IMG/VR virus record: IMGVR_UViG_3300032287_002972
Span: 64,001-128,000 of that record
DNA: 64,000 bases
DNA from: a virus
Reading direction: 5' to 3' (one strand)
Shown here: positions 26,947-37,302 of the stretch, piece after piece
How positions within the stretch are numbered: the first letter of the stretch is position 1
Layout: each line of letters begins with the position of its first letter
Position numbers and translations under genes: made by a program
The notes under the pieces: model-generated
What the model saw: only the letters and a program-made list of their open reading frames with translations
What the model was told of the DNA's origin: nothing
The model's database searches: none

Positions 26947-27056
26947 TTTAATATTTCTATATAAATAGAAAAAAAACTGGAAAATTTTTTTTCACATTTA
27001 CCCATAAAAAGTCGACTTTTAGGATTTTTTCCGGAAAAATTTCTGTTACGGCATTG

Positions 27057-27155
27057 TCCCCCCTCTGGACACATATAAAAAACCCTTATATAAGGGGGGG
27101 TACGGGAGGGGGGTATGGATAGGGGGGTATGGGGGGAATGGTCATAGAGGGGGTA
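27057..27155. other. G-tract junction (G-quadruplex-capable) at the divergent strand switch; candidate genome end or packaging region
   Basis: Six G runs (G7, G3, G6, G6, G6, G5) within about 60 bp of an otherwise very AT-rich genome. Confidence 0.5.
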
Positions 27156-27284
27156 CACTTTGAATCTAAGATAGGTTTGGGTCATTTGTAAGGGTAAACC
27201 CTACATACGGGGGTACGTTCGTCACAATCAATTTATGTACGTTTTAAAGGGGTAAAAATTATTTTAAAAATAAATATAAAAAAG

Positions 27285-27316
27285 TTTGGATTATACAAAA
27301 CTAAATATTATCTTTG
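27285..27316 (+). promoter_or_regulatory. First Bacteroidota sigma70-type early promoter; about 35 similar copies up to 54 kb
   Basis: TTTG-N20-TATCTTTG with A-rich upstream tract; matches the Bacteroides/Flavobacterium -33/-7 consensus. Confidence 0.85.
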
Positions 27317-27357
27317 TCAAGTCGTTATGACATTCACCACTAAAGATTTTTTAACAC

Positions 27358-27612
27358 ATGGAAACAACAATCAATTTTTCTTTCATCGTGACAAGAGACA
27401 CGGTTGAAAATTTCAGAGGTACATTACCTTCAAAATTTTCGACACCACAGGAATTGTGGAAACACATTAAGTACCATTCTGAAAACATTGAATCCTTTGA
27501 GTTAGAAAGGTTCGAATTTGACGTTGACTATAACGGTTGGACAAACAAACTAACCATTGACCAAATTGTCAACGACCCTTTAGAAGATGAGTTTGATATT
27601 GAGTTTGAGTAA
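27358..27612 (+). CDS. Early hypothetical protein (Ala-free, acidic)
   Basis: Lies between promoter and terminator. Confidence 0.75.
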   Translation: METTINFSFIVTRDTVENFRGTLPSKFSTPQELWKHIKYHSENIESFELERFEFDVDYNGWTNKLTIDQIVNDPLEDEFDIEFE

Positions 27613-27627
27613 CCAAACTAAGAATAA

Positions 27628-27750
27628 CCCTACCAATTAGGTGGGGTTATTTTTTTGTCATGTATGTAAACCCTACCAATTAGGTAGGATTAATAAGTTC
27701 TACTGAATAGGTAGGATTAATATGTTCTACTGAATAGGTAGGATTAATTT
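27628..27750. repeat. Short tandem hairpin repeats (CTAC..AATAGGTAGGATTAA); related copies at 28180-28245
   Basis: Four related units seen directly. Confidence 0.7.
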
Positions 27751-27935
27751 AGGGGAAAATGAAATTAGTGGGGCAACGACCTCACCATTCCATGGGGTAC
27801 TTGCCCCACTAAATTTTCCGTGGATACGGGGTAAAAATTATTTTAAAAATAAATATAAAAAAGTTTGGATTATACAAAACTAAATATTATCTTTGTCAAG
27901 TCGTTATGACGTTCACCACTAAAGATTTTTTACTT

Positions 27936-28163
27936 ATGAGTTTATTATTGACCGAGTACCTTACGGTACAAAATGTTCTGAATGAGAAATTTGAGAACCT
28001 ACTCGAAGAGTTCACCACAAACGAATTTGTCACCGAAGTTGGGGACAAAATCTTTGAGGAAACGGGAAAGACGTTTGACGACGAAGAAGTCAAAGAGATG
28101 ATTGGGGAAACGTTGTTTTCTCATCTACTTTTAAATGTATCCTTATTGATTAATAACCAATAA
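27936..28163 (+). CDS. Early hypothetical protein, paralog of 35209
   Basis: TNEFVTEVGDKIFEETG versus TNEFVEEIGDEIFEKTG. Confidence 0.75.
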   Translation: MSLLLTEYLTVQNVLNEKFENLLEEFTTNEFVTEVGDKIFEETGKTFDDEEVKEMIGETLFSHLLLNVSLLINNQ

Positions 28164-28428
28164 GGATACCTTAAAAATACCCTACTGAATAAGTAGGGTA
28201 TTTTTTTGTCATGTATGTAAATCCTATCAAGTAGGTAGGATTAATTTGGGGGAAAATAAAATTAGTGGGGCAAGTACCCTATGGAATGGTGAGGTCGTTG
28301 CCCCACTAAATTTTCCGTGGATACAGGGGTAAAAATTATTTTAAAAAAAGTATAAAATAAATTTGTTTATATCAAACTAATTTTGTATTTTTACGTTATA
28401 ATTATTTCACCACTTAAAATTTATTACC

Positions 28429-34553: not shown

Positions 34554-34940
34554 ATGAAAACAATTTTTAAGGACTTTAACCAAAATTTCTTTTCGTCAAC
34601 AGACCATATTAAATGGTTTGATAATGATGGATATATGAAATCTGTTTCATATAAAAATAATGAAGTAGTTGTTAAGTTTATTAGATTCACTTTAGACAAC
34701 CCTTTCAGTAAACATGATTTTAGTGGTTATACGGTTGAAATTTTTAACAAAGAAAATGGATTGATAGTTAAAAAGTTTTTCAACTTTGAAAACTATCTAA
34801 CAATGAAACACAGACCCGATACCCAAGAATATTATCATGTTTGGTTACGAGATAATAAACTTGATTGGTACATATCAACACCAATAGACACCAATGAAAT
34901 GTGTGAGAAAATATTTGAGTGGATTGAAGTATTCGTATAA
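34554..34940 (+). CDS. Early hypothetical protein
   Basis: Cassette architecture. Confidence 0.75.
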   Translation: MKTIFKDFNQNFFSSTDHIKWFDNDGYMKSVSYKNNEVVVKFIRFTLDNPFSKHDFSGYTVEIFNKENGLIVKKFFNFENYLTMKHRPDTQEYYHVWLRDNKLDWYISTPIDTNEMCEKIFEWIEVFV

Positions 34941-35208
34941 AAATATTGATTTGTATTGACCATTTTCCAACCCTCGATGAAAGTCGGGGGTTTTTTATTT
35001 TCGGTACTTTACTCTGAAGTCAGGAAAGAAAAGTGAAATTAGTGGGGCAAAGGTCGGTAGGAAAATTGTCATACGTTGCCCCACTAATTTACAATTCCCG
35101 AATCGAGGATTGAAAATAATTTAAAAATAATATAAAATAAATTTGGTTTTATGAAACTAATTTTGTAGTTTTACGTTATGATTATAAAACCAATTAAATC
35201 ATTTAGTT

Positions 35209-35418
35209 ATGAATGAAGTGAATCGAATTATCGACCAAAAAATTCTTGACAAGTTAGTACAACTTGTTGAAGATTTGTCCACTAATGAGTTTGTTGAAGA
35301 AATCGGTGACGAAATCTTTGAGAAAACGGGTGAGGAGGTTGATAACCTAAAAGAGATTATTGGGGAACGGTTGACACCAATACTAATTAATTTTTCCCGT
35401 GTAGTCCTTACCAAGTAG
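35209..35418 (+). CDS. Early hypothetical protein, paralog of 27936
   Basis: See 27936. Confidence 0.7.
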   Translation: MNEVNRIIDQKILDKLVQLVEDLSTNEFVEEIGDEIFEKTGEEVDNLKEIIGERLTPILINFSRVVLTK

Positions 35419-35689
35419 TAAGGGTTAACTGAAAAAGAAACCACTCCAATACGGGGTGGTTTTTTTTGTCTATTAGTATTGTAGTTCAACTGAAGTCAGG
35501 AGGGAAAACTGAAATTAGTGGGGCAACGTATGACAGTATGGTGGGTATGACACTTGCCCCACTAATTTCAATCTCTTCAGATTCAAAAAAATAATTTAAA
35601 AAAAGATAAAAATAATATACACAAAGTTTGGTTATATCAAATATTATTATTAGATTTGTACTTTAGAAAACAACAAAAAACTTATTACC

Positions 35690-36265
35690 ATGTTAGAACA
35701 AAAAATTATCGGTGACTATTATTTGAACATTGACCACGAAAACTATCCTGAAAATCCACGAGAGTGGGATAACCTTTCAACAATGATTTGTTTTCATCGT
35801 CGGTACACTTTAGGTGACAAACACACATATAATCATAATGATTATAATGGTTGGGATGAAATGGAAAAGGATATTATTAGGAAAGAAAATGTTGGGGTTA
35901 TTTTACCACTATACCTTTATGACCATAGTGGAATAACAATATCAACGAAACCTTTTCATTGTAATTTTGATTCAGGACAAATTGGTTTTATTTATGTTTC
36001 AAGAAAAACAATTTTTGAAAACATAAGGGGTTACAAAACACTTACCAAAAAAGTGAAAGAAATTATAACTGAAAGGTTATTGAATGAATTGAAATGTTAC
36101 GACCAATATTTACAGAACGAAGTTTACTCCTTTGAAATTGTAAAAGATGATGAAAGGATTGAATATTGTGGTGGATATTACGATATAGATGAATGTATAA
36201 AAGAAGGTACTGATATGGTGAATGATTTGATAAATGAAAACGTCATACATCAAGAAATATTGTAA
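35690..36265 (+). CDS. Conserved phage/plasmid hypothetical protein
   Basis: NPREWDN...LPLYLYDHSGITIST...DSGQIG...CGGYY. Confidence 0.75.
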   Translation: MLEQKIIGDYYLNIDHENYPENPREWDNLSTMICFHRRYTLGDKHTYNHNDYNGWDEMEKDIIRKENVGVILPLYLYDHSGITISTKPFHCNFDSGQIGFIYVSRKTIFENIRGYKTLTKKVKEIITERLLNELKCYDQYLQNEVYSFEIVKDDERIEYCGGYYDIDECIKEGTDMVNDLINENVIHQEIL

Positions 36266-36431
36266 TAGGTTTTCCATTTGATTAGTTCCCGTGTTTTGTT
36301 ACACGGGAATTTTTTTTGGGTAAAACGAATTTAGTGGGGCAAAGGTCGGTAGGGAAACTGTCATACGTTGCCCCACTAAGTTCAATCCTTTCAGGAGGTA
36401 AAAAAATACTTTTAAAATAATCTAAAATAAA

Positions 36432-36463
36432 TTTGGTTATATCGGAAAATAGATTTATATTTG
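36432..36463 (+). promoter_or_regulatory. Representative early promoter
   Basis: TTTG GTTATATCGGAAAATAGATT TATATTTG; identical at 37056 and 38686. Confidence 0.85.
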
Positions 36464-36494
36464 TGTATTAAATAACAACAAAAAACAAATTACA

Positions 36495-36902
36495 ATGGAA
36501 AACATTTTAAAAGACGAATGGTTAAAAGGTAACATTGTTCCATGTGAATATATGTTCAAGTTCAAGAACAAGAATTTGGATATGTATAATATTAACTACA
36601 ATACCTATGAGGATAATGGAATCATTTTCAAATTATGTATGAATTTAGTTCAAAACTTAATTGAAAAGGAAATGATTACTTTTTTCGATGATGTTCCCAA
36701 TATGGTTGTTTGTGTTGATATAGATGAGATTGGTTTAGACGGTGGTGGGTTATGTATTGAAACTTTACACTATAAAGTAGAAGGTGAGGATATAGTTGGA
36801 TTAGATAGAGATTGTGACGTATCAATGTCATTGAATTATTTCTTTGGAATTGAAAACGAAATCTACGAATATAATTCAAGAAAAACTTTCTCGTTGAATT
36901 AA
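36495..36902 (+). CDS. Early hypothetical protein, paralog of 31559
   Basis: See 31559. Confidence 0.75.
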   Translation: MENILKDEWLKGNIVPCEYMFKFKNKNLDMYNINYNTYEDNGIIFKLCMNLVQNLIEKEMITFFDDVPNMVVCVDIDEIGLDGGGLCIETLHYKVEGEDIVGLDRDCDVSMSLNYFFGIENEIYEYNSRKTFSLN

Positions 36903-37116
36903 AAAAAAGACCCTCGATGAAAGTCGGGGGTTTTTTATTGGGGGAAACCGAAATTAGTGGGGCAAAGGTCGGTAGAAAAATTGTCATACGTTGCCCCACT
37001 AATTCGAGTTTGTTCAGGAAGTAAAAAAAATAATTAAAAAAAAAGATAAAATAAATTTGGTTATATCGGAAAATAGATTTATATTTGTGTATCATTAAAA
37101 ACAAAAACAATTTACA

Positions 37117-37302
37117 ATGAAGAAAGTAAAAATGAAATTAGTTGGTTTGGACGGTAACGCTTTTTCCTTAATGGGAGCATTTCAACAAAATGCACGAAGA
37201 CAAGGGTGGAAAAAAGAAGAAATTGATGAAGTTATCAAAAAATGTATGAGTGGTGATTATAACAACTTATTAAGGGTTCTTATGGAACATACCGAAGAGT
37301 AA
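37117..37302 (+). CDS. Small conserved phage protein; first Ala-containing gene of the early block
   Basis: LVGLDGNAFSLMG...SGDYNNLL. Confidence 0.75.
   Translation: MKKVKMKLVGLDGNAFSLMGAFQQNARRQGWKKEEIDEVIKKCMSGDYNNLLRVLMEHTEE

Follow-up and report, generated by a model that had tools for sequence, protein, structure and literature searches.

Why would a phage give up a single dinucleotide, and with it one whole amino acid, over ten kilobases of its DNA? The question is raised by a 64,000-nucleotide stretch (positions 64,001 to 128,000 of the IMG/VR record IMGVR_UViG_3300032287_002972), hereafter the window; the record itself, 168 kb and 50% complete, is referred to as G000, and relatives' genomes and loci by G and L numbers. 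G000 is a fragment of the genome, about 330 kb in full, of a giant, uncultured freshwater phage. Between 27053 and 37158 of the window (10.1 kb, hereafter the zone) the dinucleotide 5'-GC-3' (GpC) occurs 30 times, each time in an arm (GGGGCAA / TTGCCCC) of one of 15 inverted repeats. Since GpC has been cleared from their DNA, the 16 open reading frames (ORFs) of the zone encode 1,963 residues without a single alanine.

A zone cleared of GpC and of alanine

With the arms masked the zone holds no GpC, against 206 expected from its own composition and 93 expected at the genome-wide observed/expected ratio (O/E) of 0.45 (Poisson P about 6e-41). The nearest other copies directly flank it, at 27051 and 37159, and the next longest stretch of the 168-kb genome without a non-arm GpC measures 1.2 kb. 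All ten strand-symmetric GpC contexts are gone outside the arms, non-palindromic ones included, and zone CpG stands at O/E 0.87. Terminator stems contain no GpC where 17 are expected, but 20 CpG. A 267-amino-acid (aa) comparison gene outside the zone (10096-10899) encodes 15 alanines. Exact counting thus upholds what an earlier sequence-only reading of the window had claimed, namely GpC confined to palindrome arms, 16 consecutive alanine-free proteins of about 1,950 residues, 100-200 GpC predicted by base composition, about 15 alanines in the 267-aa endolysin and terminator stems that avoid GpC while CpG is common; neither scattered GpC outside the palindromes nor a depletion merely matching the rest of the genome was found. 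What that reading overlooked is that GpC is avoided genome-wide, that restriction sites are missing from the zone and that a conserved element marks its start.

On both strands GATC (0 observed, 33 expected), CTAG (0/28) and CCGG (0/20) are absent from the zone, as are GAATTC and GATATC, whereas the CG-containing sites TCGA (46/54) and ACGT (64/70) are kept. This pattern suggests exposure to restriction-type attack, with GpC singled out beyond what an ordinary enzyme mix would do. All 16 genes are preceded by a predicted promoter matching the Bacteroidota housekeeping consensus, and most end in a hairpin terminator. The features are:

27021-27113, unstranded: conserved single-copy element of ~90 bp, holding the last GpC (27051); the zone begins one base later
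27763-37004, unstranded: 15 inverted repeats, arms of 12-16 bp around a loop that varies, each placed in a spacer after a terminator and before the following promoter
Arm GpC pairs 1-5: 27773/27803, 28270/28300, 28781/28811, 29268/29298, 29799/29836
Arm GpC pairs 6-10: 30308/30365, 31401/31429, 32035/32063, 32948/32978, 33526/33556
Arm GpC pairs 11-15: 34396/34427, 35047/35078, 35523/35556, 36339/36370, 36962/36993
27358-27612, plus strand: alanine-free ORF, 84 aa, with its own Bacteroidota-type promoter at 27286
27906-28163, plus strand: alanine-free ORF, 85 aa
28429-28722, plus strand: alanine-free ORF, 97 aa
28937-29158, plus strand: alanine-free ORF, 73 aa, hydrophobic, probable membrane protein
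29421-29741, plus strand: alanine-free ORF, 106 aa
29959-30249, plus strand: alanine-free ORF, 96 aa
30487-31341, plus strand: alanine-free 284-aa protein, weak match to endolysin families
31532-31975, plus strand: alanine-free ORF, up to 147 aa
32197-32496, plus strand: alanine-free ORF, 99 aa
32632-32841, plus strand: alanine-free ORF, 69 aa
33083-33418, plus strand: alanine-free ORF, 111 aa; the zone of relative G001 has a homolog
33691-34263, plus strand: alanine-free ~190-aa protein, predicted WYL/Sm-like barrel, family marker of the zone
34554-34940, plus strand: alanine-free ORF, 128 aa
35209-35418, plus strand: alanine-free ORF, 69 aa
35690-36265, plus strand: alanine-free 191-aa protein, phrog_6186, conserved across the family
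36495-36902, plus strand: alanine-free ORF, 135 aa, closing the zone
37117-37302, plus strand: 61 aa, phrog_1933, 3 alanines; nearest gene beyond the boundary
38014-38445, plus strand: RadC-like JAB protein outside the zone, 6 alanines
39026-39874, plus strand: DUF932 protein, outside the zone in the window, 3 alanines
45574-46464, plus strand: C5 cytosine methyltransferase, considered as a GpC modifier and judged unlikely

The model of the ~190-aa marker protein matches a WYL/Sm-like barrel (Z 6.8, root-mean-square deviation 3.0, 77 residues); 42 of its 44 homologs have 0-1 alanine, and one from a non-avoiding phage has 17. The 191-aa protein is modelled confidently but without an informative fold match, the best being a small common motif (Z 8.4, root-mean-square deviation 1.6, 62 residues). 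Nuclease folds are not listed among the matches of either model, which does not exclude a nuclease, and nine zone proteins scanned against PHROG received no T5 A1/A2 annotation. The GpC-free zone of one relative includes a small RNA polymerase alpha-CTD-like protein (L458:8642-8956), a possible transcription-takeover factor.

Position, relatives and the target of selection

The zone is the extreme of a trait that runs through the whole of G000, where TGC encodes 4 of 330 cysteines, CGC encodes 1 of ~1,400 arginines, alanine makes up 2.4% and G|C codon junctions stand at O/E 0.25. GpC O/E is 0.51-0.58 in relatives G001, G003, G005, G011 and G012, G002 is largely non-avoiding (0.87), and G004 (L146-L156), which encodes four C5 methyltransferases, avoids CpG instead (O/E 0.16), no CpG-free zone being seen in the part analysed. 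A zone of this kind recurs in relatives; it is leaky in some lineages, and L455 carries the same kind of gene array without the purge. Of 150 representatives of the family to which the ~190-aa marker protein belongs, 54 lack alanine and 74 have at least five, and a quick tree of this protein forces at least nine trait changes, for some of which gene relocation or transfer may account. Depletion of GAC was not borne out as a general feature of these loci. A separate observation concerns G011 (L256-L272), which encodes a Dam-like methyltransferase: GATC has an O/E of 0.01 outside its early array, yet 38 copies (56 expected) lie in its zone.

The element at the start of the zone is nearly invariant across divergent phages and occurs once in 8 of 12 records, including all four near-complete ones. 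Gene direction and GC skew both switch at it, and some six contigs stop within it or next to it, those of G003 and G005 at the identical base. These contig ends and the conservation point to a probable genome terminus or packaging site. From this element the purge runs for 9-13 kb in G000, G011, L456, L457, L460, L458, L312 and L313, although their gene content differs, and L421 has no GpC in 12,027 bp. Whether a gene has alanine follows the side of the boundary on which it lies; L421 and L427, whose zones are longer and include the gene, encode phrog_1933 homologs free of alanine, against three in the window, where the gene lies outside. The zone is set by position and not by gene content. 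Just past the boundary, in several relatives too, lie repeated GpC-dense spacers (window 38550-38640; G011 ~166.0-168.1 kb; L312:10929-11152; L313:10963-11933; G001 ~152.5-157.1 kb), their GpC reaching or exceeding the expected number although these genomes avoid it elsewhere; they are possible stop signals or decoys.

How alanine was replaced separates selection from mutation. In ordinary phages, homologs of the 284-aa protein (52-56% identical, full-length matches) have 14-17 alanines and 30-36 GpC. Aligned to them, the zone protein has at 15 conserved alanine positions serine seven times, glycine and valine twice each, glutamate, asparagine, glutamine and lysine once each, and never threonine. 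Among DUF932 homologs 12 of 91 are alanine-free, and those checked sit inside their own phage's zone; across lineages alanine has given way to serine, glycine, cysteine or valine, with serine, glycine or cysteine at one column. The net loss of alanine in core genes genome-wide, relative to the non-avoider G002, went to serine 59 times, threonine 22 and valine 21. Because alanine became mainly serine or glycine, where deamination of methylated cytosine would yield valine and threonine, the replacement shows GpC loss to be due to selection.

On the sequence evidence, the target of this selection is DNA. Untranscribed spacers of L421, L424, L427 and L462 hold no GpC against 39, 35, 35 and 16 expected, CpG being close to its expected count in L421, L424 and L427, and terminator stems are free of GpC in all ten avoider zones tested, so that selection on RNA or on transcription alone is insufficient. 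The earlier claim of selection on DNA with 2-bp specificity is supported. In most of 21 zones genes are purged harder than spacers (0.6 against 16 GpC per kb in L466). Because spacers are less purged than genes and GC-containing inserts survive, a single GpC would be costly, not lethal. Among the GpC that survive in these 21 zones, some of them related, GGCA/TGCC, the context found in the arms, and CGCC/GGCG are over-represented and A/T-flanked GC is under-represented.

The inverted repeats fold as hairpins (z -3.8 to -6.1), and the exact palindrome of the window had no match in IMG/VR. Close relatives vary the outer arms and retain a GGCA core. In L462, however, a GGCA arm has become GGTA with a compensating change in the opposite arm, and the palindromes of G011 and L421 have arms without GC; judging from these losses, the GC of the arms is dispensable. 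It is probably an old feature slow to change over many paired copies, or one shielded by pairing or by a bound protein. Speculatively, the WYL/Sm-like zone protein could bind palindrome DNA.

A probable entry order and the agent that may read GpC

The explanation we lean towards, with just under even confidence, is that the zone is first-entering DNA which evades a GpC-damaging activity, most likely a host defence. The first ~10 kb to enter would consist of single-gene units transcribed by host RNA polymerase right after entry, and would meet an activity that recognises bare GpC in DNA and damages it there by a cut, a nick or an adduct. Every GpC would carry a cost. It would be highest inside genes and smaller in spacers, since damage that falls after one unit's terminator and ahead of the following promoter still allows both units to be transcribed; selection would therefore strip the zone of GpC although all alanines went with it. 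Zone products would then blunt the activity, so that later DNA needs only the partial avoidance seen genome-wide. The host assignment belonging to this explanation, a large lytic phage of Bacteroidota, comes from the promoter type and from one Chitinophagaceae metagenome-assembled genome (MAG) in which a contig of a relative was binned, a weak host hint; a search of this MAG, whose completeness is not known, found no C5 methyltransferase.

Precedents exist for a decisive entry segment. In phages T5 and BF23 the restriction sites of the 9.7-kb first-step-transfer DNA decide sensitivity and sites elsewhere are tolerated (PMC10644984), and in Murciavirus (Autographiviridae) facing the Type I restriction-modification system Mme2I it is the target sites of the leading region alone that count (PMC12455610); both segments show restriction-site loss (PMC10644984; PMC12455610). 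The phages described here share with T5/BF23 a segment of ~10 kb (9-13 kb in eight phages) that is poor in host restriction sites and takeover genes suited to host polymerase (predicted Bacteroidota-type promoters at 16/16 genes here), and the sequence-only reading was right to liken the zone to first-injected regions, running as it does for ~10 kb from a fixed start with classic restriction sites lost. They differ in that the avoided word is a dinucleotide costing an amino acid, in that avoidance is also genome-wide, and in having a T4-like capsid with Bacteroidota-type promoters; they are at most candidate members of the T5 type. With the Murciavirus leading region (PMC12455610) the zone shares variable gene content, the difference being a known Type I motif and an identified enzyme there and a 2-bp word here.

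Several points weigh against evasion of a host defence. Neither a GC-reading enzyme nor a host could be pinned down, and a host GC nuclease would need self-protection. The 30 arm GpC persist and some relatives carry GC-containing inserts within the zone, which argues against an efficient double-strand cutter, unless the arms are shielded or their context is poorly recognised. The GC-dense spacers just past the boundary are left without explanation, and contig ends at the start element could be assembly breaks at G-rich sequence.

Alternatively the phage itself could supply the agent, as a nuclease carried in the virion or made pre-early: it would destroy host DNA at GpC, and the first-entering DNA would be immune for lack of sites. 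We regard this as unlikely, though it would suit a trait that flips between close lineages, with G002 and L455 as non-avoiders and the repeated changes on the marker-protein tree. Chlorovirus CviJI, cutting at GC, is a precedent, and chloroviruses break down host DNA within minutes, presumably by packaged endonucleases (PMC7019647); PMC10644984 calls it unclear by what means T5/BF23 leave their own DNA unharmed. CviJI and M.CviPI are known examples of enzymes whose recognition goes little beyond GC (PMC7019647; PMC8256090), but they belong to algal viruses with companion methyltransferases, and no direct search for them was made in avoider phages. The two modelled zone proteins without a nuclease-fold match are a weak test against such a nuclease. 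More generally, no GIY-YIG gene, and no other nuclease or GpC-modifying enzyme, was found to be common to the avoiders, and no candidate gene separates them from non-avoiders in comparable regions.

More doubtful still is that a phage enzyme modifies GpC in virion DNA and that this mark stalls host RNA polymerase or draws a modification-dependent nuclease, so that the DNA expressed first has to do without it. Phage pathways of GpC-specific C5 methyltransferase, TET and glycosyltransferase do exist (Burke et al. 2021; PMC8256090) and share the specificity seen here, and the CpG depletion of relative G004 with its four C5 methyltransferases speaks for the idea, but the avoiders gave neither a TET nor a shared C5 methyltransferase. 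The dioxygenase search (TET/JBP, PF12851) matched 0 of 5 records, and control genomes gave no match either; a DarT search, with equally silent controls, found nothing. The C5 methyltransferase of the window was rejected as the GpC writer, as it has no counterpart in avoider G012 (93% complete) and its homologs accompany CpG depletion more often than GpC depletion; the C5 methyltransferases of G000, G001 and G011 are only 35-38% alike. N4/N6 methyltransferases, of mutually unrelated types at one locus, fail as a shared modifier, ThyA looks canonical, no QueC was found in G000 (50% complete), and six partial genomes gave no convincing match to Que/DpdA motifs (QueC/QueD/FolE/DpdA). The family has conserved glycosyltransferase-like genes near dUTPase and PhoH, but glycosyltransferases occur in non-avoiders too. 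Harder purging of genes than of spacers in most lineages would fit a mark that stalls polymerase, yet a pure transcription block leaves the purged spacers unaccounted for. Paired GC arms ~600 bp apart would make a good McrBC target. The sequence-only reading's proposal of GpC-modified phage DNA is thus unsupported, though conceivable. A dCMP deaminase-like gene beside the capsid gene (L004:4191-4631, corresponding to G000 37691-38131, minus strand) is shared by six GC-avoiding genomes at 81-88% conservation, and G002 and G004 lack it; over 80 loci it is an unclean correlate, and it was discarded because several capsid loci without an adjacent copy still avoid NGC codons.

That no single agent is at work, and many host restriction enzymes with GC-containing sites jointly removed GpC, we consider improbable. 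Further 4-6-bp palindromes are missing from the zone and AGCT is the rarest GC context genome-wide with composition allowed for, but non-palindromic contexts were lost as well and CpG, TCGA and ACGT were not purged. For this reason collective host defences, although the closest of the three explanations offered by the sequence-only reading, are weak in their collective form, and one GC-specific agent fits better. Highly improbable is a GC-specific endoribonuclease, of the type exemplified by MqsR, cutting early transcripts: it would agree with genes purged more than spacers and with a preference for GCG over GCT among alanine codons, but the purge extends to untranscribed spacers and to the paired stems of terminators, the context bias is roughly strand-symmetric and partly common to non-avoiders, and past-boundary genes with the same promoters retain GC. 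Reservation of GC as a palindrome signal, the last of the earlier explanations, and mutational loss by deamination are both largely refuted, the former, despite the GGCA core of close relatives, by sister phages with GC-free arms and by GGCA/TGCC words in the spacers of the non-avoiding L455, the latter by the serine and glycine replacements.

The trait is real, selected and family-wide, and its agent may be a new enzyme class. On balance, if narrowly, we believe that there is an undescribed class of enzyme reading only GpC in double-stranded DNA, be it a host defence or the phage's host-destroying nuclease, and that under its pressure a large family of phages acquired, probably on more than one occasion, a recoded entry region and a 19-amino-acid early proteome. 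In our literature search neither the purging of a dinucleotide nor a block of genes without alanine turned up, and we know of no sequence purge in chloroviruses. Evasion of a host defence predicts a DNA-attacking activity of 2-bp specificity in Bacteroidota cells, outside the known restriction repertoire, for which GC-free and GC-containing reporters are a ready assay; were the agent phage-made, it would suggest, in testable form, how a phage can break down host DNA and leave its own intact. Besides, the purge flags the probable entry end and likely anti-defence genes of an abundant uncultured family, and it is a natural experiment: dozens of protein families have lost one amino acid, and matched homologs that contain alanine are there for comparison.

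The phage family and neighbouring genes

G000 encodes a T4-like capsid and terminase whose nearest annotated records are ~30% identical, none exceeding ~32% over full length, and DNA-level comparison with annotated phages gave no match. The capsid has at least 599 matches in IMG/VR, and near-complete genomes of relatives measure 290-325 kb. Beyond the zone the gene array goes on with RadC, DUF932, GP88 and the C5 methyltransferase. Further on, a 307-aa protein (49119-50042) matches DUF3293 and, weakly, an S-adenosylmethionine lyase (E 0.028), and is a possible anti-restriction gene outside the zone. An array of ~70 short ORFs (50-100 aa) occupies the minus strand at window ~59900-64000 and G000 128000-139000; rich in Q, V, I, K and R, with alike starts and low alanine, it is an apparent paralog expansion. 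Five tandem paralogs of 262-318 aa with a common N-terminus lie on the minus strand at window 13964-18375, and two more at G000 36219-37684.

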